Part shown: one piece after another, positions 1 through 32,393 of the stretch
How the letters are laid out: every line of letters begins with the position of its first letter
How positions within the stretch are numbered: the first letter of the stretch is position 1
IMG/VR virus record: IMGVR_UViG_3300036713_000034
Location: 1 to 32,393 of that record
Length of the DNA stretch: 32,393 nucleotides
Origin: a virus
Lineage: Duplodnaviria > Caudoviricetes
Reading direction: 5' to 3' (one strand)
Translations under genes and position numbers: made by a program
Notes under the pieces: generated by a model
Told to the model about the DNA's origin: nothing
What the model saw: only the letters and a program-made list of their open reading frames with translations
Databases searched by the model: none

Positions 1-49
1 CCTATTATTATTAAGGTTATGGAGGATTAAAATGGGAGATGCCCTAAGA

Positions 50-271
50 CTAGGATTCCCGACTAGATCGTCCAGCGTTCTCGTGTTCACGTACCCACTT
101 CATGTGTCTACCGGGAAAATCCCCAGAAGACCCTTCAAGTACGTGCTGAGTTGCTGATACGATTTTTGTAGCGTTGGCTCCGCATCCGCACCTACTGGAT
201 GTGGTGTTGCCGTCTACAAATTCTTCAAAGATATGTCCGTTTGTACAGCGAAAATCAAATACTTTAATCAT
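50..271 (-). CDS. FmdB-like zinc-ribbon protein
   Basis: FDFRCxNGHxFE...CGCG...ATKIVS pattern typical of small phage zinc-ribbon proteins; overlaps the upstream ORF by 8 nt. Confidence 0.7.
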   Translation of the reverse strand: MIKVFDFRCTNGHIFEEFVDGNTTSSRCGCGANATKIVSATQHVLEGSSGDFPGRHMKWVREHENAGRSSRES

Positions 272-512
272 CGCTCTTTGTTAGCTCTTCGTAGTTATTG
301 TTAGTAGTAGTTTCAAAGTTGATTAGATAAGCAAGTACGTTGAGTTGCCCCTTACGAACAAACAAATCGTTTTCATCTTTAGTTGCTTCTACGCTGTTAA
401 TTACGACAGCATTTTGAGTAAGTTCTTCAATTAGCTGTTTCCAACCAGCGGTTCTAAACAGGTCAAAGTACTTGTTGTAGTATTGTTCAGTTTCTTGATC
501 TAGTGAGGCCAT
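264..512 (-). CDS. hypothetical head-module protein (82 aa)
   Basis: Intact ORF directly downstream of the minus-strand promoter at 533-561; 'GWKQLIEEL...KGQL' helical pattern; sits in the portal-scaffold interval. Confidence 0.7.
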   Translation of the reverse strand: MASLDQETEQYYNKYFDLFRTAGWKQLIEELTQNAVVINSVEATKDENDLFVRKGQLNVLAYLINFETTTNNNYEELTKSDD

Positions 513-532
513 ACGGTTGTCTCTATATCCTT

Positions 533-561
533 ATTATAACATATTTTTGACTAAAAGTCAA
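533..561 (-). promoter_or_regulatory. sigma70-type late promoter
   Basis: Minus strand TTGACT (561-556), 17-bp spacer, TATAAT (538-533) with extended -10 TGn. Confidence 0.85.
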
Positions 562-580
562 GTATTATTTTACGGTATTA

Positions 581-706
581 TTACCGATTCTTTTTATTTC
601 GTCCACGAGCTACAGCTAGGTTTGACCAAGCATTTGGGTATTTTACACCTCTTTTCTTGGACATGGCTTTAGCTCTGGCTTTCTGTTGTGGTGTTAACTT
701 AGCCAT
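581..706 (-). CDS. small basic protein, 41 aa (MAKLTPQQKARAKAMSKKRGVKYPNAWSNLAVARGRNKKNR)
   Basis: Hand-translated, below the ORF-track cutoff; ATG 1 nt after the stop of the upstream micro-ORF. Confidence 0.7.
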   Translation of the reverse strand: MAKLTPQQKARAKAMSKKRGVKYPNAWSNLAVARGRNKKNR

Positions 707-3615: not shown

Positions 3616-4086
3616 CTAGTCTTTTATCTTAAACGTGTTAGACTTAGCTCTATTTTCTTTAGCCCTAAGTATTTGCAAATTATGTTCTACGTGTAAACCA
3701 CAAACTTTAGAGTGCTGAAGTGGTACGATGTGGTCAATTTCAAAATCAGGCTTAACGCCTACAGACTTAAAAATAGCGTTAGCTTCAGCGGCGTTAACAT
3801 ATAGATCCTCTATGTACTGTTGGCTAGCCCAAGAGGGTTGTGCGTTTTTTATTGTTTTTCTTCTTTTAGACTGTGCGGCGGCGTGTTTTGCGTTATATAG
3901 AACAGGATCTTTAGCTTTCCTTCTTCTATATTCAATAGCCCTAGCTTCAGGATTCTTTACACGCCACTTTTTTACTGCATCAAAAACGCAGGCACGACAC
4001 TTATTTAGCCTACCGTCTTTCATTCTTTTATTTTTGTGAAACTCAACAATAGGCTTATTTTCGCCGCATTTAAAACAAGTCTTCAT
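3616..4086 (-). CDS. HNH endonuclease with N-terminal zinc finger
   Basis: CxxC...CxxC N-terminus; 'EIDHIVPLQ...CGLHVEHNLQIL...ENRAKSN' HNH motif. Confidence 0.9.
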   Translation of the reverse strand: MKTCFKCGENKPIVEFHKNKRMKDGRLNKCRACVFDAVKKWRVKNPEARAIEYRRRKAKDPVLYNAKHAAAQSKRRKTIKNAQPSWASQQYIEDLYVNAAEANAIFKSVGVKPDFEIDHIVPLQHSKVCGLHVEHNLQILRAKENRAKSNTFKIKD

Positions 4087-6902: not shown

Positions 6903-6914
6903 TATATACTGTAT

Positions 6915-6943
6915 ATTATACCATATTTTTACTCAAAAGTCAA
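6915..6943 (-). promoter_or_regulatory. sigma70-type late promoter for the terS operon
   Basis: TTGACT (6943-6938), 17 bp, TATAAT (6920-6915), extended -10; 33/40 identical to the promoter at 531-570. Confidence 0.85.
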
Positions 6944-7212
6944 GCATTATTTATAGTAAATAAGTCACAAGTTATACTTAGGGACACTGTATTTACACTT
7001 GTGGCCCCGGCCTGAGTAAATCACGAGGTAAATCAGGAGGTTGTACACGAGTTAAAACCACTCTTTTTTACCTATTTTTTAGCTAATTTGACTCTTTTAT
7101 GAACAGAGGTGGGTACAACTATAATTAACACAGGTCAACCCCCTCCCCCCGTGTCAAAACAAAGGGCCACCCCAGTCTAACACAAGACCGACACGATTGC
7201 AAGGAAAAACAT

Positions 7213-7447
7213 TGGTAATATTCACGAGGCATCAGGGGTTGACACACGGGGCAGACTGTGGTAGTCACGGGGCCCGAAGTCCTACCACAGTTGACACGGG
7301 TTGTCAAGTGTTTTATCACTGGTAATATTCACAAGTAAATATGTGTTGACAAAGTGTGTGGACTAGTGTAGGTGCCTATGGCACACCGCAAGCATACTCA
7401 GCGCAAGATGTCAATAGATAAAACAAACCAGGTCACAAATATTACCA
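7213..7447. repeat. 107-bp-period repeat of TGGTAATATTCAC / TTGACA / TGTCAA elements
   Basis: GGTAATATTCAC at 7214 and 7321; TTGACA at 7239 and 7346; TGTCAA at 7302 and 7409; inverted AATATTACCA at 7438-7447. Confidence 0.7.
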
Positions 7448-13010: not shown

Positions 13011-14653
13011 ACCTAGTCTTTTGTGACATTGAAACTGACGGTCTGGACGCCACAACTATCTGGTGTGCCGTGTGCCGACACAACGGAGTATCGGAGGTAA
13101 TATGCAATGAACAAGATTTCAAAACGTATGTATCGGATCGCCCGAACTCAAATTGGGTTTTCCACAATGGAATCGGCTATGACTTACCTGTTCTGGGTCG
13201 CCTTTGGAATTTTAGTTTTGACCGGAGCAGGATCGTTGATACACTTGTCCTCTCTAGGTTAGCCGACCCAAGCCGGTCTGGTGGTCACTCCCTGCGTAAC
13301 TGGGGAAACACTCTTGGGTTTGCTAAGGGCGATCACAACGATTGGTCGCAGTTGACACCAGCGATGATCGACTACTGCATACGTGACGTAGAGTTGACTG
13401 AAGCGGTGTACAAGCGGTTACAGGTGGAGCTAGACGGGTTCTCTCAGGAGAGCATTGATCTAGAGCACGAAGTACAGTGGATCATACAAGGACAAGAGCG
13501 CAACGGGTGGTTACTGGATCAGCGCTTGTGTCACATCTTGTGTGCTAAATTTAAGGAGCGCATGAATGTTATTGAAGCGGATCTACAGGCGCTTTTCCCG
13601 CCGATCATTGAGGAGCGATACTCAGAGAAAACTGGTAAACGGCTCAAGGATAAGGTCACTGTATTCAACGTTGGTTCAAGACAGCAAGTGGCCGACAGGC
13701 TTACAGCTAAGGGCGCAGTATGGACGGAACTCACTGCGACAGGCAAACCAGTTGTTGATGAAAAGACGCTTAGGGAGAATCATCATGTTCCCGAAGCGGA
13801 ACAAGTACTGGAATACCTCTTACTCCAGAAGCGGTACGCTCAAGTCAACTCGTGGCTAGAGCACGTACAGGATGACGGTAGGGTACACGGTAGGGTCACT
13901 ACTAACGGTGCTGTAACCGGACGTATGACGCACCAGAACCCAAACATGGCACAGGTTCCTTCAGTTAACTCTGAGTTTGGCAAGGAGTGCCGTGACTGCT
14001 GGATAGTACCAGAGGGACGTAAGCTAGTGGGTGTTGACGCTAGTGGACTAGAACTACGGATGCTCGCACACTACATGGGCGACGAGGAGTTTACAGATGT
14101 CTTGCTTAGAGACGACATTCACACCAGAAATCAAATTGCTTCTGGACTTGCAACAAGACCTCAAGCAAAGACTTTCATCTATGCTTTCCTCTACGGGGCA
14201 GGAGACGCAAAGATTGGAAGCATCGTCGGAGGAACGGCAAAAGATGGCAATGCGCTTAGGACACGCTTTTTACGAAATACACCTTCTCTTGAAACTCTAC
14301 GAGAACGAGTTGGATCTGCTTCTAGGAAAGGATACCTCGTCGGACTGGACGGACGAAAACTCTGGGTCAGATCAGAACATAGTGCACTGAACACACTCTT
14401 GCAGTCTGCCGGCGCAATCATTATGAAACGTGCACTGGTGCTGTTGGATGACTACGCAACACAACACAAGATTGACTACAAGTTTATAGGGAACGTACAT
14501 GACGAAATACAATCGGAGGTGGTTACAGAACAAGCAGAGAAGTTCGGCTGGCTCGCAGTCGAGTGCATCAAGGCGGCTGGTCTATCATTTCAACTCAGAT
14601 GCCCCCTTGACGGAGAGTACAAAGTGGGATCAACGTGGGCGGAGACACACTGA
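13007..14653 (+). CDS. DNA polymerase family A (3'-5' exonuclease + polymerase)
   Basis: Exo 'DIETDG', 'HNGIGYD', 'YCIRDV'; motif A 'DASGLELR', motif B 'RPQAKTFIYAFLYG', motif C 'VHDE'; TTG start overlapping the primase TGA. Confidence 0.95.
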   Translation: MNLVFCDIETDGLDATTIWCAVCRHNGVSEVICNEQDFKTYVSDRPNSNWVFHNGIGYDLPVLGRLWNFSFDRSRIVDTLVLSRLADPSRSGGHSLRNWGNTLGFAKGDHNDWSQLTPAMIDYCIRDVELTEAVYKRLQVELDGFSQESIDLEHEVQWIIQGQERNGWLLDQRLCHILCAKFKERMNVIEADLQALFPPIIEERYSEKTGKRLKDKVTVFNVGSRQQVADRLTAKGAVWTELTATGKPVVDEKTLRENHHVPEAEQVLEYLLLQKRYAQVNSWLEHVQDDGRVHGRVTTNGAVTGRMTHQNPNMAQVPSVNSEFGKECRDCWIVPEGRKLVGVDASGLELRMLAHYMGDEEFTDVLLRDDIHTRNQIASGLATRPQAKTFIYAFLYGAGDAKIGSIVGGTAKDGNALRTRFLRNTPSLETLRERVGSASRKGYLVGLDGRKLWVRSEHSALNTLLQSAGAIIMKRALVLLDDYATQHKIDYKFIGNVHDEIQSEVVTEQAEKFGWLAVECIKAAGLSFQLRCPLDGEYKVGSTWAETH

Positions 14654-14663
14654 GGATGCTTTT

Positions 14664-15185
14664 ATGGACTCTTGCAATACTTGCGGTGTTGAACTCACAG
14701 AGCAAAACTGGAACCCAAGCTGGAAAAAACAGGACCGACTACAGTGTAAAGACTGTAATAACCCTAATCGAAAAAAACACAACCCAAACAGAATGTGGGT
14801 AAACGGGAAATACATTTCAAAAAAGCACCCCTTGTTTAAACCCGGACGCTACAAGACGTTTGAGGATGCCGCCTTTAGCAGTCTGGCGAAGTACGAATTG
14901 AGCAAGGAGGGACAGGTGTACATCATCACTAACCCTAACTTCCCTGAGTGGGTCAAGGTGGGCATGGCTGTGGACTCAGAGGACAGGCTAAACGGTTATC
15001 AAACGTCTTCACCGTTCAGAGACTACGAGTTGTTCGCTTGTTGGTCAGTGTCGGACAGACGGTCTGCGGAGTCAGAAGCCCACAGTCTGCTAGAGAAAAC
15101 GTATGATCGTAAGGGTGAGTGGTTTAATTGCACACCAGATCAAGCTCAGTCGGCGTTATCTAACTTAATGGAGCAACACAAATGA
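14664..15185 (+). CDS. GIY-YIG-superfamily (T5orf172-like) protein with N-terminal zinc finger
   Basis: CNTC...CKDC; 'GQVYII.NP.FPEWVKVG.A...EDRL..YQTSSP', 'E..AH', 'GEWF'. Confidence 0.85.
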   Translation: MDSCNTCGVELTEQNWNPSWKKQDRLQCKDCNNPNRKKHNPNRMWVNGKYISKKHPLFKPGRYKTFEDAAFSSLAKYELSKEGQVYIITNPNFPEWVKVGMAVDSEDRLNGYQTSSPFRDYELFACWSVSDRRSAESEAHSLLEKTYDRKGEWFNCTPDQAQSALSNLMEQHK

Positions 15186-17868: not shown

Positions 17869-19733
17869 TGGACGCATATCAACAGTACATACACAAGAGT
17901 CGCTACGCTAGGTATTTGCCAGAGGAGAAGCGCAGGGAGACTTGGGAAGAAACAGTCAGCCGGTACTTAAACTTTTGGGGCGACAAACTCCCAGAGACTT
18001 CACGTAAGGAAGTGTACGAGGCTATCCACAACCTAGACGTAATGCCTTCCATGCGAGCACTGATGACCGCAGGGGAAGCACTGGAGCGTGACAACGTAGC
18101 AGGATTTAACTGTAGCTACCTACCGATAGATCACCCCAAGGCGTTTGACGAACTGATGTACATTCTGCTGTGCGGAACAGGTGTAGGCTTCAGTGTGGAA
18201 CGACAGTACGTGCAGAAATTACCAGAGGTAGCGGAGACATTCCATGAAACCGATACAGTTATTAATGTGGCAGATTCGAAGATCGGATGGGCGAAATCGT
18301 TTAGGGAGTTGGTATCACTGCTGTATTCAGGTCAGATTCCCCAATGGGACACAAGCAGAGTTAGACCTTCAGGTGCCCCGCTTAAAGTTTTTGGAGGTAG
18401 AGCAAGTGGTCCAGAACCTCTGCTCGAACTGTTCAGATTCACAGTTGAACTCTTTCAGGGAGCTTCTGGCAGAAAACTTAGCTCCGTTGAGTGCCACGAT
18501 CTTTGCTGTAAGATTGCTCAAATCGTCGTTGTCGGAGGAGTCAGACGATCAGCCCTCATCAGTCTCAGCAACCTCACAGACGACAGACTCCGACGTTGTA
18601 AACACGGACAGTGGTGGGTAGATAATCCCCAGCGTGGGCTGGCGAACAACTCTGCTTGCTACACAGAGAAACCAGACTTTGAGGCATTTCTAAATGAGTG
18701 GACCAGCCTATATGAATCCAGATCAGGAGAGCGAGGAGTATTTAGTAGAGTCGCAAGTCAGAAACAGGCTTCAAGAAATGAACGAAGAGATGCTACCTTT
18801 GATTTCGGAACTAATCCGTGTAGCGAAATCATCCTCCGACCCTACCAATTCTGCAACCTTTCAGAAGTTGTTGTTAGGCCACAGGATACACTCAACAGCC
18901 TCAAACGAAAGGTTCGGATTGCGACTATCCTTGGGACTCTTCAGGCTACCCTCACCGACTTCCGATACCTCAGAAATATTTGGAGAGTAAACACGGAAGA
19001 AGAAGCACTGCTGGGTGTATCTCTGACAGGTATCATGGATCACCCGTTGCTCTCAGGACGAGGAGATAAGAATGAACTCAAGAAGTGGCTCAGAGCCATG
19101 CGTCAGGAAGCAATCAAGGTCAACAAGGAGTGGGCTAGTAAGTTGGGTATCAATGTATCTACCGCTATCACTGCAGTTAAGCCTTCAGGCACTGTTAGTC
19201 AGTTGGTTGATTCTGCTAGTGGGATTCATCCTCGTTATTCTGCTCAGTACATACGCAGAGTTAGGGCAGACGCTCGTGACCCACTTTGCGCCGTCCTAGA
19301 GGCCGCTGGTGTCCCTGTGGAGGACGATGTGATGTCCCCCAGTACTAGGGTATTCAGCTTCCCTATCGCCTCTCCAGAGGGCGCTGTGACAGCCTCAGAC
19401 ATGGGTGCTATGGAGCAGTTGGAACTGTGGGAGATATATCAGGATGAGTGGTGTGAACACAAGCCGTCCATGACTTGCTACTACCGTGACGAGGAGTTTC
19501 TTGAGGTGGGACAGTGGCTGTACAACAAGTTTGACAAGGTAAGTGGCATATCTTTCTTACCGTACTCAGACCACACGTACCAACAGGCCCCGTATGAGCC
19601 GGTGGACAAGAAGACTTTCAATCAGTTGAAGAAGGACTTTCCTACAGAGATTGATTGGGACATCAACGAGGAATCCGATATGACTGAGGGTAGTCAACAG
19701 TTGGCCTGTACCGGCAACAACTGTGAACTCTAA
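17868..19733 (+). CDS. nrdJ: class II adenosylcobalamin-dependent ribonucleotide reductase
   Basis: 'FNCSY', 'GTGVGFS', 'VVVGGVRRSA', thiyl 'TNPCSEI', 'QFCNLSE', 'VKPSGTVS', C-terminal 'CTGNNCEL'; no R2 subunit gene nearby. Confidence 0.92.
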   Translation: MDAYQQYIHKSRYARYLPEEKRRETWEETVSRYLNFWGDKLPETSRKEVYEAIHNLDVMPSMRALMTAGEALERDNVAGFNCSYLPIDHPKAFDELMYILLCGTGVGFSVERQYVQKLPEVAETFHETDTVINVADSKIGWAKSFRELVSLLYSGQIPQWDTSRVRPSGAPLKVFGGRASGPEPLLELFRFTVELFQGASGRKLSSVECHDLCCKIAQIVVVGGVRRSALISLSNLTDDRLRRCKHGQWWVDNPQRGLANNSACYTEKPDFEAFLNEWTSLYESRSGERGVFSRVASQKQASRNERRDATFDFGTNPCSEIILRPYQFCNLSEVVVRPQDTLNSLKRKVRIATILGTLQATLTDFRYLRNIWRVNTEEEALLGVSLTGIMDHPLLSGRGDKNELKKWLRAMRQEAIKVNKEWASKLGINVSTAITAVKPSGTVSQLVDSASGIHPRYSAQYIRRVRADARDPLCAVLEAAGVPVEDDVMSPSTRVFSFPIASPEGAVTASDMGAMEQLELWEIYQDEWCEHKPSMTCYYRDEEFLEVGQWLYNKFDKVSGISFLPYSDHTYQQAPYEPVDKKTFNQLKKDFPTEIDWDINEESDMTEGSQQLACTGNNCEL

Positions 19734-20976
19734 GTTACTCCGGTACGCTCTAGTTGGGTTGCTCTTAGGAGCGCCCAACGCCTCTTCTGACACCCTGATA
19801 AGGTCTGGATGTTCTAAGGACTATCCTGGTGTCCAGTGGTCTATCTACGAGGACACAGGCGGTAACAGGTACGTAACCAAGGACCCAAGGTCACGTAAGT
19901 GTGGGTTCTCCCGTAAACTCAATCTGTCTCTGGTCAAGGAAGCTGGAGACAGGTTTGACCCTGTGGTTATCTCTGTGGACTACAGAGACATGCTAGGCCG
20001 TGAGGAAGGCTGGGGCATGGTACACCACAGCACAACCAGAGGTACAGCCAAGAGGGTCGGATGCTGTACTGTGGAGGTGTACGGGGACGGGTCTACGGGT
20101 GACGGTGTGTTTACTCTGGGTGTTGAGCAGATACAGTTTAGGCTTGAGCCAGAACCTGTGTGTCCTACTGAGAGTAACCTAGACTGTCAGGGGTACGAAC
20201 AGAGGGGGTCTTATCCGTTTATCTACTACGGTGAAGACGATGACCGTTTGGTTACGTGGGAGTTAGGTGTGCTTATGTACGCCTCTCACGCTAAGTACGG
20301 AATAGACACACCGATAGAGTTGATGTACGAGTACCCAGAGATGTGGGACCAGTGGGAGGACAGGGTTCAGAAGTACAACGAGGTGTACGAGAAGTCCGGT
20401 GTACACGTTAGGTACGAGCTAAAGGAACTGTGGTTAGCTCACTACCACACGTTGCACGACGTAGAGAAACAGGCTAATCAACTCCCTGTGGACGTTGTGC
20501 TGGCCTACGGTACGTCTTACGCAGATACCTGTGGTGTGGCTTACCCTAACCTGAGTTTCAACGAGGGACAGCCACCGTCGTCCATGTCTCAGTGTGACGT
20601 ATACACTGACCTACACGAGATAGGACACTCAGTGGGTTTAGCACACGGACCAGAGAACCAGAGTAACCAGAAGTCAGGCTACATATTCCCTGAGTTTGGA
20701 CACGGGTGGAACGATGTGTGTGGTAAGTACGACGACTTGATGTCATACGGTATCCACGGGGTGTTCCACAGTAACTCTCTGTTGGTGTGTAACGAGGTGG
20801 TCAACACGTCTGAGACAGCATCAGCAGGACACAGGCAGATCACTGACACTGCTTACGCTATCAACAGGGTTAGGTACAACGTGTCGCTAGTGAACGACGA
20901 GAGTTTTGACAGGAGGGGAGTCTTGAGGCCCGTGGCTACACAGGCCCGTAGACTGAGGGAGATGATCGTGGATTAA
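19723..20976 (+). CDS. secreted metzincin (reprolysin-like) zinc metalloprotease
   Basis: Signal-peptide-like N-terminus; HEIGHSVGLAH (HExxHxxGxxH); Met-turn 'DLMSY'; 'CGVAY'. Confidence 0.8.
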   Translation: MNSKLLRYALVGLLLGAPNASSDTLIRSGCSKDYPGVQWSIYEDTGGNRYVTKDPRSRKCGFSRKLNLSLVKEAGDRFDPVVISVDYRDMLGREEGWGMVHHSTTRGTAKRVGCCTVEVYGDGSTGDGVFTLGVEQIQFRLEPEPVCPTESNLDCQGYEQRGSYPFIYYGEDDDRLVTWELGVLMYASHAKYGIDTPIELMYEYPEMWDQWEDRVQKYNEVYEKSGVHVRYELKELWLAHYHTLHDVEKQANQLPVDVVLAYGTSYADTCGVAYPNLSFNEGQPPSSMSQCDVYTDLHEIGHSVGLAHGPENQSNQKSGYIFPEFGHGWNDVCGKYDDLMSYGIHGVFHSNSLLVCNEVVNTSETASAGHRQITDTAYAINRVRYNVSLVNDESFDRRGVLRPVATQARRLREMIVD

Positions 20977-26881: not shown

Positions 26882-27529
26882 CTACGGTGTGTACCAAATA
26901 GTTTCTTCAGGGTGCTTCTGTGCGTCCAGAGCGATAGCGTCAGACAAGTACTTGTCAGCAATAGCAAAGTACTCTGGTGTTGACGTACCGCCTGTCTCCC
27001 CACGTTCACGAGCCAACAGAGCTACCGCCATGTGAATTACAGGCTGACTAGGAATAGCCAGTGTGTCAGAGTCAGAACTCAAGGCTACGTTCCTGATGAC
27101 GCTTTTGACTTTAATAGAGTAAACACCGTCAGGCTTAGGGTACACATCAATCTGTGCGTCACCAGAGCCGTCGATGCCACTAAACGTGTAGTACTCTGGC
27201 TTACCAGATGTCGGTGTGTTTACCAAGAACTTATCGTCAAACCAAGTCTGTGGTCTGTACTCCATCACAATGTTAGACGTATCGTTGATAATGTTTAGGA
27301 TCTTACCTTGGTCTTGGTATCCCGTGAGTGAGTACGTGTAGTCGTCAGCCGCCGTGGTGATCGTAAGGGTAGACCTAAGATTAGACCAATCCCAAGCGTT
27401 TTCCACGAGTTGCTTTGCGTCGTTAATAAAGTCACCAACCATAGCACTGTACGTGTTGGCGCTCACTGTCGTTACTGTGTCTTCTCGTAAACGCCTCAGT
27501 ACGTTGTTTACTATGTCTAAATAGGTCAT
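26882..27529 (-). CDS. tail tube A / head-tail adaptor
   Basis: 'MTYLDIVNNVLRRLRE...FINDAK..VE.AWDW', 'VYPKPDGVY'. Confidence 0.8.
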   Translation of the reverse strand: MTYLDIVNNVLRRLREDTVTTVSANTYSAMVGDFINDAKQLVENAWDWSNLRSTLTITTAADDYTYSLTGYQDQGKILNIINDTSNIVMEYRPQTWFDDKFLVNTPTSGKPEYYTFSGIDGSGDAQIDVYPKPDGVYSIKVKSVIRNVALSSDSDTLAIPSQPVIHMAVALLARERGETGGTSTPEYFAIADKYLSDAIALDAQKHPEETIWYTP

Positions 27530-30294
27530 ACTAAGCCCTCAAACAAACTAGTTATGCTAGTATTTTGGTTATCTATCCCTTCTACGTATTGTTGTAAAAA
27601 GTTTTGAATTGGAAACTGCATTTTAGTCAAAAGCTGTGGATCGCCTTGTAACTCAAAACCAGCATCTACGGAAAACATACCGCCACCGGCACCGCCAGTT
27701 CCACCACTACCGCCACTAGGAGGTTCTGGAGGGGGAGCTGTACCACACTCTTCTGGGTTAGCCGCCGCGTACTCAGCGCAAGTACAATCGTTACACTCTG
27801 GATCTGTTCCACAGATAGTAGGATTAGCTTTTGCATACTCAGCGCAAGTACAATCGTTACACTCTGGATCCATTCCACAGATAGTAGGATTAGCTTCTGC
27901 ATACTCAGCACAAGTACAATCGTTACACTCTGGATCTGTTCCACAGATAGTAGGATTAGCTTCTGCATAGGCTGAATCTAAACAAGGGTCAACTGTAGTT
28001 GGACACTGTTGATCTTTAGGAATGTAAGAACCGTTGCACTCTTTGTAACCACATTCGTCTGCATTAGTAGCATCTATTGTTGAACAAGGATCAACTGTAG
28101 TTGGACACTCTTGTTCTTTAGGAATGTAAAAACCATTGCACTCTTGGTAACCACATTCGTCTGCATTAGTAGCATCTATTGTTTCACAGTTGTCGTCTAT
28201 TGAACAATCTTCATTAGTAGATCCGTTTATACAATCTCCACACTCACTAGGTTTATTTTGTTCGGGAACAGCGACAACGTGGTATCTGCCTAGAGCTTTA
28301 CACTCTTCAGGAGTAGGTCCGGGGTTTACAAAGTCAGCGACACAATCACAGTTGTCTGCGTATTTACCGGGAGCACCGTCTTTTGTTGTACAAGGGGTGT
28401 TTGGAGTACAATCAAGGGGTTCTACACACTCTCCTGTTATGTCATCTTTTACAAGTCCTCTAGATTGACAGTTGTCTAATGAAGGAATACACGGGCCTGT
28501 TGGATTATTAGCATCTGGGTCAAAGCCCTCTTCGCATTGACCGCACGAACTCTTAGTTCCAGCCGCAGTACTAGGAATATACTCTCTGTTTAAGGCGATA
28601 CAATCGTCCTCAGTGTCTCCGGTATCTTTCCATTCGACACACTGCCCGTCTATTTCTTGGTGAGTACTCAAGCACGGACCACAGCCTGTTACTTTGTCGC
28701 CTTGTTTTGTTCCCCTGTCTCCTTGTCTACCTTCTGATGCACAATCAACTGTAAAGTCATCAACAACAGCTTTATCTCTACACCGATCATCAGTTCCTAT
28801 TTCTTGTGTTTTGTTTAAACACCCTCCACATTCTTCTATACTTTTTACTTCACCGCCTTCTCTACCGTAGTCTGAACAGTTAATTAAATTTGTCGGAGTA
28901 TCTAAAGGAAGTCCTGTTATTTCATTAATTTTGTCTATAACGTCGTTTTTCTTGCCTTCAATTTCTTGTAGGATAATACCGGATATGGTTGTGCCTAGTA
29001 CACCTGTAATCCAATCAGTAATCTGTCCCGGCGTTACGTCGTCTATACCGCCAAAAATGTCGTCTATTTTACCTAGTACCCAATCTTTAGCTCTCTGAAT
29101 AAATCCTTCGTCGTCTTCGTCACCTTGAGGAGCACTAAAGATGTCCGAAATAGTGCCACCTATTTCTTCTACTTTATTTTCTAAGTCTCTAACTGTGCCT
29201 ACATCTATGTTTCCGGGGGGCATAGGCAAACCGGGTATTCCACCAAGGACACTAGCACTTACACAGTCTTTCCAGCACTGGTTTCCTTCAGTGCCGTCGG
29301 TTCCCGCACAATCCCAAGGCTCTTCACCTTCACCTGTTAATTCACAGGTATAACCTCCGCTTCCAAAGACAGCTTCTAGGACATCATCAACTGTCATGTC
29401 CTTGACTTTGCCTATTTGACCTTCAATCCAATCTTTGATGGCTTGCGCTGTTTTTGTCTGATCTTCTGGAATTTGAGAGCCTGTGCCCTCCATATCAGGA
29501 CAGTCGTTTATAGTTTCTGCGAAAACACCACCACCACAACTGACGTAAGTGGGGTAGCTTTCTGGATCTTTGCTTAAATCTTTAGGTACAAGTTGACCGT
29601 CACTGCTTATTTCGTAACCACATTCATCAGCATTTTCTTGAGTAATGACTTTACAATCAGGACCAGCAGGAGTAGTAGATACGCACTCCCCTCCTTGTAT
29701 TGTGCCGTCTAAAGGACCGTTAGTAACTGTAGCGCACTTGTCTCCCTCTTTAAGTCCTGAATTACCTACTGGACTTACCTCCCAATTATCGGCGTCATAG
29801 CCAATGTCTCTTAAAATAGTCGCAAGTACGTTGTTTCCTTTAAAATTTTCATTGTCAACTGTAGCCCTAGCTATTTCGTTTATTGCTTCGTCAGAATAAC
29901 CAGCGCCTTTTAGTATTTTGTATATTGACGCATTGTCAGTAGGAGCCTGTACAATAACAATGTCGTTGTAGTAGTCTTCAAAACCTTCTACGTCCATTAG
30001 ACCACTAACGTCTACTTCTTGCATGTCCTTTAGCGTAGCGTCACCAGAACCGTACTTAACCAGAGCCTCTAGCCAATCTGCCGCCGCTTGACCCTTGCCT
30101 TCCAGTTTGTCACCAAATTTACTAATGAAGTCTCTGAATAGCTGAGTTTCAGCAATCTCATCACGGATGAGGTCAGAAGGTATAGTACCGTAGTCAACAT
30201 CTCCGGGCAAACCTACTCCGGGTTCTACAGTAACTGTAACGCCTCCTGTAGTGCTGGTATTATCGCCGCCTGTTCTAAACATTCCGTTAGCCAT
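27526..30294 (-). CDS. 922-aa acidic cysteine-rich modular protein, probably structural
   Basis: ~54 Cys by hand count, mostly in 4-Cys modules; ATGA-coupled to the adaptor gene; no signal peptide. Confidence 0.8.
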   Translation of the reverse strand: MANGMFRTGGDNTSTTGGVTVTVEPGVGLPGDVDYGTIPSDLIRDEIAETQLFRDFISKFGDKLEGKGQAAADWLEALVKYGSGDATLKDMQEVDVSGLMDVEGFEDYYNDIVIVQAPTDNASIYKILKGAGYSDEAINEIARATVDNENFKGNNVLATILRDIGYDADNWEVSPVGNSGLKEGDKCATVTNGPLDGTIQGGECVSTTPAGPDCKVITQENADECGYEISSDGQLVPKDLSKDPESYPTYVSCGGGVFAETINDCPDMEGTGSQIPEDQTKTAQAIKDWIEGQIGKVKDMTVDDVLEAVFGSGGYTCELTGEGEEPWDCAGTDGTEGNQCWKDCVSASVLGGIPGLPMPPGNIDVGTVRDLENKVEEIGGTISDIFSAPQGDEDDEGFIQRAKDWVLGKIDDIFGGIDDVTPGQITDWITGVLGTTISGIILQEIEGKKNDVIDKINEITGLPLDTPTNLINCSDYGREGGEVKSIEECGGCLNKTQEIGTDDRCRDKAVVDDFTVDCASEGRQGDRGTKQGDKVTGCGPCLSTHQEIDGQCVEWKDTGDTEDDCIALNREYIPSTAAGTKSSCGQCEEGFDPDANNPTGPCIPSLDNCQSRGLVKDDITGECVEPLDCTPNTPCTTKDGAPGKYADNCDCVADFVNPGPTPEECKALGRYHVVAVPEQNKPSECGDCINGSTNEDCSIDDNCETIDATNADECGYQECNGFYIPKEQECPTTVDPCSTIDATNADECGYKECNGSYIPKDQQCPTTVDPCLDSAYAEANPTICGTDPECNDCTCAEYAEANPTICGMDPECNDCTCAEYAKANPTICGTDPECNDCTCAEYAAANPEECGTAPPPEPPSGGSGGTGGAGGGMFSVDAGFELQGDPQLLTKMQFPIQNFLQQYVEGIDNQNTSITSLFEGLV
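27770..27967. repeat. 3 x 66-bp tandem repeat (22-aa CGTDPECNDCTCAEYAEANPTI unit)
   Basis: Units start at 27770, 27836 and 27902; near-identical. Confidence 0.95.
27981..28184. repeat. 2 x 102-bp tandem repeat (34-aa TIDATNADECGYxECNG.YIPK.Q.CPTTVDPC unit)
   Basis: Units start at 27981 and 28083. Confidence 0.95.
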
Positions 30295-30297
30295 GCG

Positions 30298-30672
30298 TTA
30301 CTTACCCTTCATCTGCATCAGCTTGTCAGCACCACGTATGCCAAAGCTAGCCGTGACTGCTACGTAAAGCAAGTACTGGTAGTAATCAGGTAGCTTGTCT
30401 AGCTCAACAAAAGCTAACCCTACCCTCTGCATAATACTCAAGTCATCCATAGCAACTCCGTAACATACGGCTAACAAAGGCAACGACAGCACCACAGTGA
30501 ACCACTCGTCTTTCCACGAGGTTGCACTAGCCGCCGCCATCTCTTGTTCCCACGTAGCTGTGTTCTTGATGACTTCCATCTTAGCTACGTGTTTAGCTTG
30601 TGACTGCTCGTGCTTGTTGTTAATCCAAGTCTTAGCGAGTCCAGCGATAGGTCCGATCAGTGCAGTCCACAT
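30298..30672 (-). CDS. holin-like membrane protein (GTA-type 3-TM holin pattern)
   Basis: 'SWKDEWFT', two clear TM segments plus amphipathic N-terminus, 'ASFGIRG' end. Confidence 0.7.
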   Translation of the reverse strand: MWTALIGPIAGLAKTWINNKHEQSQAKHVAKMEVIKNTATWEQEMAAASATSWKDEWFTVVLSLPLLAVCYGVAMDDLSIMQRVGLAFVELDKLPDYYQYLLYVAVTASFGIRGADKLMQMKGK

Positions 30673-30675
30673 ACC

Positions 30676-30846
30676 TTAGTCTTTGTCCTTGTTCCTAAAT
30701 CCCTGTACTGTATCTGTTTCCCATATTCGTATGGCTACCCATATGATAGTGAACATGGCAGATATAGGCGGCAGGATTGCACTGATAGTGCCTAACATAG
30801 TACCTACGCTCATTACATCAACAATTTGCTTTGCGGACTCATCCAT
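30676..30846 (-). CDS. 56-aa small membrane protein, holin-like (MDESAKQIVDVMSVGTMLG...IRIWETDTV...)
   Basis: Hand-translated and absent from the ORF track; hydrophobic core; tiles between neighbours. Confidence 0.7.
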   Translation of the reverse strand: MDESAKQIVDVMSVGTMLGTISAILPPISAMFTIIWVAIRIWETDTVQGFRNKDKD

Positions 30847-31315
30847 TACTAACCCCTTGTATAACGCTTATGGTTGTCCAGATAATCCCAGCAGTGACCA
30901 TTAGGCTTATAATAATTGCTGATACATCTAGCATACGTCTTTGTTTTCTTCGTTGCTTGTAGATCACTTGTTCGCGTTTGGTTCTTATGTCACGACGCAT
31001 CTGCATCATTTCTCTGTACGTGTCTTCACCGTATGCGTACATGATCAACTCGCGTATTTGCTTTTCCTGCTCCTCTATTTTCTTCTTTGCTATGATGGCG
31101 TTTAACGCTTGTTCTTCTACAGAGCTGTTGTCAAACACCTTCTTAAATAGTGGAGGGTTTTCTATCTCCTTTTCAGCTTCTTTTAAATCACTTGCAAGTG
31201 TGTACCACTGACCTAACTTCTGAGCTACGTGTTCTATCTCTGCGCCTTTGGATACAAGAACCTGTACACCCTTGAACGCAGTAGACGCCATCGCTACCAG
31301 AGATACAGGATCCAC
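30839..31315 (-). CDS. coiled-coil protein with C-terminal TM anchor
   Basis: 'MDPVSLVAMASTAF', 'EEQAL...KKK.EEQE', basic stretch then TM. Confidence 0.75.
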   Translation of the reverse strand: MDPVSLVAMASTAFKGVQVLVSKGAEIEHVAQKLGQWYTLASDLKEAEKEIENPPLFKKVFDNSSVEEQALNAIIAKKKIEEQEKQIRELIMYAYGEDTYREMMQMRRDIRTKREQVIYKQRRKQRRMLDVSAIIISLMVTAGIIWTTISVIQGVSNG

Positions 31316-31318
31316 GGG

Positions 31319-31573
31319 TTACTCTGCGTTAGGGTCAACCCAATCAGGGTTTTGCGTCCATGTGGTCCCGTCAAATGTATATTTATTACCTGTCCAATCG
31401 CTAGGCGCGTTAGTGACGTTTTCTGTAATAGTCGCGTTACTGGAATTTAGATCTGCAACAATAAATTCAGGTGGATCACCCACGACAATGTGGTCAGAAT
31501 TGGCAGTGATCGTCACACTGTCATTGAGCAGGTATTTTGATAAGCCAGTTGCGGTTTCTACAATCGTTTTCAT
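31319..31573 (-). CDS. small tail-associated protein
   Basis: 'APSDWTGNKYTFDGTTW..NPDW' motif typical of proteins downstream of tail fibres. Confidence 0.65.
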   Translation of the reverse strand: MKTIVETATGLSKYLLNDSVTITANSDHIVVGDPPEFIVADLNSSNATITENVTNAPSDWTGNKYTFDGTTWTQNPDWVDPNAE

Positions 31574-31576
31574 GTT

Positions 31577-32393
31577 TTATCCCTTAACGATAAGTTGAGT
31601 TGATGATACAGCCGTTCCTGCAAACACTTCTGGACTGTCGGCAGTCAAGCCAAGTGAGCCGTCACCTTGCACGAAATACTTTTGCCCTGCAGTCAATCCG
31701 GTCTGCGCGTCATCTACAGACCCCACGATCTGAATTGTTGCTGTTGTTGCGTCAGAGTAGGCGGCATCAGAAATGCCAATGTAGTTTTCTGCGGTAAGGT
31801 TGGTACTTGTAGACTCAGCCGTAAGCACGACAGCCGTACCATAACCAGAGTTCCCATTATCCGTATAGGCTATTACTACCTTCTGGGCATTAGCATTATA
31901 GGTAGCTGAACTAGTAAGGCTATAAGCACTTTCAAAGACGACTGCTGTGCCGAAACTAATGGATGTACCACTAACAGTACCGACAATAGCCGTTCCATAA
32001 TCAGAGTTTCCACCATCCGTATAGGCTATTACTACTTTTTGAGCGTTAGCATCATAGGTAGCTGAAATGTCATAGGCAGTGGCACTTTCAAAGACAACTG
32101 CTGTACCAAAGCTAATTGATGTACCACTAACAGTACCAACAATAGCCGTACCATAAGCAAAGTTCCCACTATCCCGATAGGCTATTACTACCTTCTGGGC
32201 ATTGGGATCGTAGGTAGCTGAAATATAATAGGTAGTGGCACTTTCAAAGACAACTGCTGTACCAAAGCTAATTGATGTACCACTAACAGTACCGACAATA
32301 GCCGTTCCATAATCAGAGTTCCCACCATCCGAATAAGCTATTACTACTTTTTGAGCGTTAGTATCATAGGTAGCTGACATAAAATAGCTAAGA
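31577..32393 (-). CDS. tail/receptor-binding protein with 52-aa beta-propeller-like repeats (5' truncated)
   Basis: Frame open to the window edge; repeats of four beta strands; C-terminal 'GLTAGQKYFVQGDGSL...AGTAVSST.LIVKG' domain. Confidence 0.8.
   Translation of the reverse strand, partial: LSYFMSATYDTNAQKVVIAYSDGGNSDYGTAIVGTVSGTSISFGTAVVFESATTYYISATYDPNAQKVVIAYRDSGNFAYGTAIVGTVSGTSISFGTAVVFESATAYDISATYDANAQKVVIAYTDGGNSDYGTAIVGTVSGTSISFGTAVVFESAYSLTSSATYNANAQKVVIAYTDNGNSGYGTAVVLTAESTSTNLTAENYIGISDAAYSDATTATIQIVGSVDDAQTGLTAGQKYFVQGDGSLGLTADSPEVFAGTAVSSTQLIVKG
31830..32393. repeat. 156-bp tandem repeats (at least 3.5 units)
   Basis: GGTAGCTGA anchors at 31901, 32057, 32213 and 32369 (period 156). 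Confidence 0.95.

Follow-up and report, generated by a model that had tools for sequence, protein, structure and literature searches.

Predicted propeller blades of a likely phage tail fibre appear to be reshuffled by recombination and to diversify under selection at six codons each

We analyzed a window of 32,393 nt, the whole of the virus record IMGVR_UViG_3300036713_000034 (completeness estimate 89%), in which a tandem repeat runs to the end of the contig. Our analysis makes it probable that the repeat units are predicted propeller blades at the end of a likely tail fibre, that they are kept alike and reshuffled by short-tract recombination between blades, and that selection favours new amino acids at about six codons in each blade, all on one predicted face. 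Behind this reading stand the repeat anatomy, an excess of nonsynonymous change at six codon columns, blades that carry no positional identity, linkage that is very short, and searches in which neither a reverse transcriptase (RT) nor a template was found.

A seven-blade repeat array in a fibre-like gene

Profile matches to portal, terminase, family A polymerase, primase-helicase and ribonucleotide reductase mark the record as a podovirus-like phage, and the runs that hold the region are labelled as sediment and freshwater metagenomes. Its backbone genes are 82–89% identical to those of the complete sister phage of contig L014. The repeat lies on the minus strand in an open reading frame at 31577..32392, the 3′ part (271 aa) of a 794-aa fibre-like gene that is cut by the contig end. 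Contig L082, 100% identical to window positions 29772–32393 (2622 nt), continues beyond this end and holds the whole gene (L082:104–2485), whose 794-aa product has all seven blades; the window has only blades 4–7 and, at 31577..31831 (minus strand), the non-repetitive C-terminal half of a carrier module that is split to flank the propeller. The capsid gene is followed by the propeller gene in L041, L014 and L002, and, judged from L014, L082 and L041, the part missing from the record comprises scaffold, capsid and the N-half of the propeller gene. L041 is identical to the phage's fibre gene over 1676 nt, and L041:338–929 is only 88% identical to window positions 1–595, which suggests a sister or recombinant phage.

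Tandem Repeats Finder returned a period of 156 with 3.6 copies at 31832–32387 and 84% matches between units. An earlier reading of the sequence alone had described four 156-bp units; the repeat and its period are real, but only three units are full and the fourth stops after about 31 codons. On the minus strand, unit 1 (32237..32392) is blade 4 of 7, unit 2 (32081..32236) blade 5, unit 3 (31925..32080) blade 6, and unit 4 (31832..31924), in register for about 31 codons, blade 7. We numbered the 52 codons of a unit from 0, so that loop A spans columns 0–4 and loop B columns 20–26. Loop A, a predicted connection between strand d of one blade and strand a of the next, lies on the minus strand at 32378..32392 in unit 1 and at 32222–32236, 32066–32080 and 31910–31924 in the following units; its most variable columns are 0, 2 and 3. 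Loop B, a predicted b–c turn, lies on the same strand at 32312..32332 in unit 1 and then at 32156–32176, 32000–32020 and 31844–31864; its most variable codons, 20, 22 and 26, surround the near-invariant residues D21 and N24. All nine loop codon columns quoted in the sequence-only reading are present as written in the minus-strand frame 31577–32392. Differences in the framework, which is 0.91 identical between blades of this gene, had been called nearly all synonymous; most are, but columns 10 (T/P/A/A) and 9 (D/N) change the residue.

The contig terminates within the array, as might be expected of a chimera made by an assembler in a repeat. We regard this explanation as practically negligible, given that L082 is identical over 29772–32393, that exact matches to 30584–31991, 32078–32206, 32108–32293 and 31794–31944 occur in contigs of other runs (L082 or run X1 may come from the window's own sample), so that most of the units have exact cover from other runs, and that the same codon pattern recurs in a separate lineage, referred to below as lineage A. 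Off-target contigs with blade-like sequence in these runs belong to other phages.

The module belongs to a family with more than 7883 longer related proteins, from which 78 viral loci were fetched; in these, the split carrier module flanking the repeats is joined to many different N-terminal regions. AlphaFold2, applied to the module of a relative of the window gene (L001) with an alignment of 48 of the 60 modules found, gave a model with a pLDDT of 91.5, a pTM of 0.81 and a four-strand pattern that recurs every 52 residues; the carrier module's C-terminal half, at pLDDT 58–86, scored below the rest. The window gene's own module, folded without an alignment, reached a pLDDT of 34.5. In structural alignment the best match of the L001 model was a seven-bladed propeller (Z 36.8, rmsd 2.4 over 330 residues), the fold matches covering residues 31–400 only. 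With seven four-stranded blades closing a ring in this model and seven repeats in the gene of L082, the module is a predicted seven-bladed β-propeller. Column 0 corresponds to residue 49 of the model, which places loop A between strand d and strand a of the following blade, a stretch called extended rather than coil by DSSP, and loop B at the b–c turn. The d–a and b–c connections of WD40 propellers lie on the top face (PMC1805685), and by this standard topology both loops are predicted to share one face of the L001 model; the propeller fold and the shared face are in line with the sequence-only reading. Pfam matches to DUF1923 and Cyclophil_like2 in the window had no passing stretch and were set aside as repeat noise, and an Rfam scan of the window gave 0 matches.

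Homogenised blades (identity ≥0.85) were found in 14 of the 53 loci with at least two blades, the other 39 falling below 0.85, and homogenisation is not family-wide. All genes that were compared closely have seven blades. The complete sister phage of L014 itself has diverged blades (0.76). Some loci carry several propeller genes, namely L025 (1468–5742), L027, L040 and L043; L025 has three homogenised seven-blade arrays, whose blades are intermixed on a tree.

Gene context suggests that the protein is likely a phage tail fibre with the propeller at its end. The L003 copy of the module forms the end of a protein that matches a tail-fibre family (phrog_38058, E 5e-27); the N-terminal part of the window gene has no tail-fibre family match, and no family match to gp38 was obtained. 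Gene 49 of Lentibacter phage ICBM2, annotated only as hypothetical, has a homologous module (31% identity, E 1e-9; Foldseek E 2e-21), and the module of genes around it is described as one of tail fibres and chaperones (PMC6775973). Directly 3′ of the propeller gene, at 31319..31573 on the minus strand, the window has an 84-aa gene (42% identity over 81 aa, E 2e-22) whose homologue in ICBM2 comes after the propeller homologue and is annotated "tail assembly chaperone protein". We infer from this context that the variable face binds the host. The same evolution could also act on a head-decoration or capsid-spike adhesin, or serve attachment to particles or glycans instead of an infection receptor-binding fibre. 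The capsid gene adjoining the propeller gene in L041, L014 and L002 is consistent with such a role, and the top fold matches of the L001 model include the lectins BP39L and PLL, a likeness that by itself shows no function; against it stand the placement of the ICBM2 homologue, the downstream chaperone homologue and the tail-fibre match of L003, and we consider this alternative unlikely.

Other features of the window were recorded alongside. Among the virion genes, 27526–30294 (minus strand) encodes a 922-aa acidic, cysteine-rich protein without a Pfam or PHROG match, and its gene has internal tandem repeats of 66 nt ×3 (27770–27969) and 102 nt ×2 (27981–28183). At the end of the replication arm, 19723–20976 (plus strand) encodes a protein of 417 aa whose N-terminus is hydrophobic and which weakly matches a reprolysin-like metallopeptidase (E 3e-5). 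Between the divergent arms, a gene-poor region holds an inverted repeat of 26 nt with a 17-nt spacer (7239–7307), and a 39-nt AT-rich direct repeat, possibly promoters, recurs in two intergenic regions (532–570 and 6914–6952). One homing-endonuclease-like gene (3616–4086, minus strand) sits between terminase and portal and is absent there in L014, as judged from a blastn gap; another, of the T5orf172 type (14499–15185, plus strand), follows the polymerase.

Excess amino-acid change at six codons per blade

Changes at codon positions 1 and 2 are concentrated in the loops, as originally noted: among the four units of the window, position 2 varies in 9/9 loop columns versus 0/43 other columns, and position 1 in 6/9 versus 3/43. 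We extended the comparison to two lineages with near-identical frameworks, lineage A (77 unique blades from 10 contigs) and lineage B (21 blades from the window, L041, L001 and L002, a count that includes the blades of both the window and L041, which are one gene). The same six columns (0, 2, 3, 20, 22 and 26) are hypervariable in both. Across the seven blades of the window gene, read from L082, these columns have a pN of 0.552 and a pS of 0.089 (pN/pS 6.2), versus a pN of 0.026 and a pS of 0.361 (pN/pS 0.07) in the other 43 columns; pairwise pN/pS is here a rough counting estimate on recombining paralogous repeats. The six columns were picked for their variability, a selection bias that a cross-lineage test answers in part: the nine columns chosen in the window gave a pN/pS of 2.32 (bootstrap 1.41–3.94) in lineage A. 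There, the six columns gave 2.3 (bootstrap 1.4–4.4) and the other columns 0.24 (0.11–0.43), and the ratio of six-column pN to whole-blade pS was 1.98. With Jukes–Cantor correction, dN/dS at the six columns was 3.4 in both lineages, with frameworks at 0.16 and 0.05. The ratio at the loop codons thus exceeds 1 in the window gene and in an independent lineage, the result that the sequence-only reading had predicted for targeted diversification.

The loops might merely be unconstrained, so that neutral drift in recent duplicates, together with the choice of the most variable columns, would produce the pattern. Consistent with this, the four window units show no significant third-base contrast (p 0.46), and many framework silent sites are fixed too; the identical copies of the gene in L082 and L041 show no change. 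Drift would, however, give a pN/pS of about 1, and the cross-lineage estimate of 2.32 has a lower bound of 1.41; moreover, entropy over 370 unique blades shows variation at the same columns, and D21 and N24, which the variable codons flank, are strictly kept. We regard drift as an improbable explanation, and continue with selection at about six codons per blade.

The behaviour of the third codon base required closer reading. It had been described as almost fixed in the loops, which is clear across relatives only: in the four window units third bases vary in 2/9 loop columns versus 17/43 others (Fisher p 0.46). In the whole gene, 41/42 third bases at columns 0, 2, 3, 20, 22 and 26 agree with their own column, and the third base varies in 1/6 of these most variable columns versus 26/46 of the rest (p 0.094). 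Third bases are column- and lineage-specific, column 2 being NNC in lineage A and NNT in lineage B. A general codon bias was rejected as the cause, the same residues being T-ending in column 0 and C-ending in column 2 within one lineage. For third bases the observed share was 0.88 versus a codon-usage null of 0.59 (reached in 0/2000 simulations), which indicates inheritance of the third base; it does not mean that this base exceeds every framework site in fixation. Fixation amounts to 0.81–0.93 in three homogenised genes and 0.50–0.75 in eight genes with diverged blades; because it is stronger in the homogenised genes, we read the frozen third base as most likely a product of recent common ancestry combined with fast amino-acid change.

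Silent diversity also dips around the loops. At the loops, near them and in the rest of the blade it was 0.11, 0.03 and 0.28 in lineage A and 0.17, 0.16 and 0.43 in lineage B, the columns of low silent diversity that flank the variable codons in both lineages being 51, 1, 4–7, 17–19, 21, 23–25 and 27; the near-loop set was picked after viewing lineage A, and lineage B serves as replication. This dip could reflect hitchhiking, or loop-flanking DNA that is kept as recombination handles.

Exchange of blades within and between genes

If blades were inherited by position, they should group by position in the ring, and they do not. A tree of 72 blades from 12 genes groups them by lineage (1 change, support 100/100) and not by ring position (51 changes; shuffled mean 46.8), and blades compared across genes are 0.840 identical at the same position versus 0.843 at other positions. 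Silent markers tell the same story: the A-B-A-B alternation first described was an artefact of having four units, the seven blades reading B,B,A,A,B,A,B, and this mosaic marker tract rules out a strict A-B dimer periodicity. All four gametes occur in 15/15 and 76/91 site pairs, a pattern that recurrent mutation can also produce. In lineage A, r2 is at most 0.14 at 6–12 nt, with decay within about 10 nt, and no linkage is seen even between the neighbouring variable codons 2 and 3, in a test between many-allele codons that has low power. The combination of loops A and B is unique in 77/77 lineage A blades, and recurring loop-A haplotypes have differing loop-B partners in 9/9 cases. The exchange between units that the sequence-only reading had proposed is borne out by the lack of positional grouping, the mosaic markers and the very short linkage.

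Comparisons between genomes extend this picture. L003 and L013 are 98.9% identical over the 1353 nt upstream and only 83% identical in their propellers, where 39/42 variable residues differ and 58 silent differences fall in 303 framework codons; such differences are not expected from point mutation in place. Conversely, L012 (L012:2978) and L013 have identical propeller DNA on unlike N-terminal fibres, the fibre of L013 being common to L003. Taken together, these sequences point to concerted evolution with exchange both within and between genes.

The mechanism that we propose for these patterns begins with out-of-register homologous recombination or gene conversion, within the gene and between co-infecting phages, which would homogenise the frameworks. 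The phage's own gp2.5-like annealing protein and exonuclease could be the source of this recombination. Ordinary point mutations at positions 1 and 2 of the loop codons would be favoured and would then spread from blade to blade together with their own third base and with silent sites nearby; third bases would look frozen because each spreading mutation brings its own, and the dip in silent diversity near the loops fits the spread of favoured mutations with their near neighbours. The roughly 42 variable residues would form a face that binds the host surface in an arms race.

RT-free targeted hypermutation at the loops, for example by error-prone repair coupled to recombination, might act on top of selection. 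The adjacent codons 2 and 3 are unlinked while silent diversity is lower at and near the loops, which would suit such a process, and for point mutations in recombinant gp38 segments localised error-prone repair is among the explanations mentioned (PMC3157838). Hypermutation would, however, also strike third bases and the silent sites beside the loops, and these vary least; hitchhiking accounts for the dip in silent diversity with no need for a new enzyme, and no candidate mutator gene appeared among the 37 ORFs scanned. We give this addition little credence.

Diversity-generating retroelements and other known systems

Variation at NNY codons had first raised the idea of a diversity-generating retroelement (DGR), located in the missing part of the genome or acting in trans from the host, that uses an AAY-rich template to rewrite the loop codons. 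Targets at a distance are within reach of DGRs (PMC5758913). In keeping with this idea, third bases are column-specific and most combinations at positions 1 and 2 are present (in lineage A, 60/96 dinucleotides over the six columns); adenine is the most frequent base at both of these positions, with shares of 0.43 and 0.48 in lineage A and of 0.33 and 0.38 in lineage B; and loop residues are rich in Y, S, D, N and G, as for AAC/AAU products (PMC12875486). The eight records that are at least 90% complete are without a homogenised array; among records that have one, this record and G004 (83%) have the best coverage. In prokaryote genome contigs 0/70 candidate relatives of the propeller were confirmed, so that no host or prophage was found.

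Direct searches gave no trace of such an element. The RT profile PF00078 matched neither the phage's own record (0/1, 89% complete) nor related records (0/45), in a search whose controls matched in 3/14 genomes, and the missing part of the record, as judged above, holds scaffold, capsid and the N-half of the propeller gene. Only 18/1586 blastn matches to blades were out of register, all of them inside long propeller ORFs and none a non-coding copy; whole-record searches of four records placed blades inside the propeller gene only, and an A-rich loop-B pattern, searched for as one exact pattern, had 0 matches in viral contigs.

The strongest argument against a DGR comes from silent adenines that are fixed next to the loops and in the stretch separating them. 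In lineage A, at a distance of up to 12 nt from loop A, TCA is kept in 76/76, GCA in 73/73 and ACA in 58/62 cases; ATA is never ATT or ATC in the 77 blades, and AAC at column 24 is kept in 75/77. The window gene keeps 27/28 silent adenines between the loops; the error rate of the BPP-1 RT at template adenines is about 30.65% (PMC12875486), at which such retention has p ~5e-4 if sites are independent, a figure that is illustrative only. Furthermore, column 20 is NNG while the five other variable columns are mostly NNY, an off-column third base changes the residue (Q, E, W and others) in 26/462 and 7/126 loop codons, and non-A bases vary as well (columns 10, 23 and 25). These results largely refute a canonical DGR, which we consider very improbable here. 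The other option of the sequence-only reading, an RT-free system of repeat shuffling plus positive selection, gains support from a pN/pS above 1 and from blade exchange.

The closest system that we found is that of the fungal HNWD/NWD NLR sensor domains, such as Podospora het-d and het-e, whose WD40 repeats have high internal conservation. HNWD propeller repeats are reported as more than 80% identical and under concerted evolution, with exchange within and between genes, and as having positively selected codon pairs around a conserved residue, 7/9 in the d–a loop and 25/27 in the b–c turn, on the top face (PMC1805685, PMC12222747). The phage gene has a similar layout, with columns 0/2 around column 1 at the predicted d–a connection and 20/22 around the invariant D21 at the predicted b–c turn, plus columns 3 and 26. 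Unlike HNWD genes, it has no HET, NACHT or WD40 Pfam match in the whole protein, its repeat is 52 aa long, and it is free of RIP; its target is likely a host surface, not a cytoplasmic protein. The gene works like HNWD and, with no HET, NACHT or WD40 match, is not a member; the likeness would be one of convergent logic, with no homology implied.

Other systems share single features. As in DGRs of the BPP-1 Mtd type, the variable residues lie on what is probably the binding surface of a fibre-like protein and the codons vary mainly at positions 1 and 2; unlike in those DGRs, no RT or template was found, adenines are not selectively mutated, and variation extends over all blades instead of one variable repeat. 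In T-even gp38 adhesins, hypervariable segments between conserved motifs are described as shuffled by recombination in or near the motifs (PMC3157838). The phage gene has in common with them the likely recombinational shuffling of hypervariable parts, and differs in that tandem paralogous blades would be exchanged out of register and that variability sits at single codons, not whole segments. ICBM2 gene 49 (Cobavirinae) and unnamed marine phage propeller proteins have a homologous module with a homologous chaperone gene next to it; unlike the window gene, most relatives have diverged blades. In a literature search by title and abstract start, with thin coverage of subscription papers, we found no description of phage propeller blades diversified in this way. 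The present analysis adds the selection test, the exclusion of a DGR, the positionless blades and the HNWD parallel.

A bolder extension seems possible to us, though doubtful: aquatic phages may keep an RT-free antibody-like library, a population-wide pool of interchangeable blades recombining over about 10 nt within and between genomes, in which each fibre gene would be a fresh draw of about 42 binding residues, loop-flanking DNA would be kept as recombination handles, and local mutation might be raised. If true, such a blade library would be a viral counterpart of the fungal HNWD repertoires and an evolved alternative to DGRs.

Codons of NNY style with a fixed third base are, by themselves, no evidence of a DGR. 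The gene is a worked example of the way in which lytic aquatic phages that lack DGRs may vary the surface that binds their host; its two-loop paired-codon layout is the one seen in fungal non-self receptors. The family is very large and has no name, and with its variable residues mapped, receptor specificity becomes directly testable, for example with the cultured relative ICBM2.
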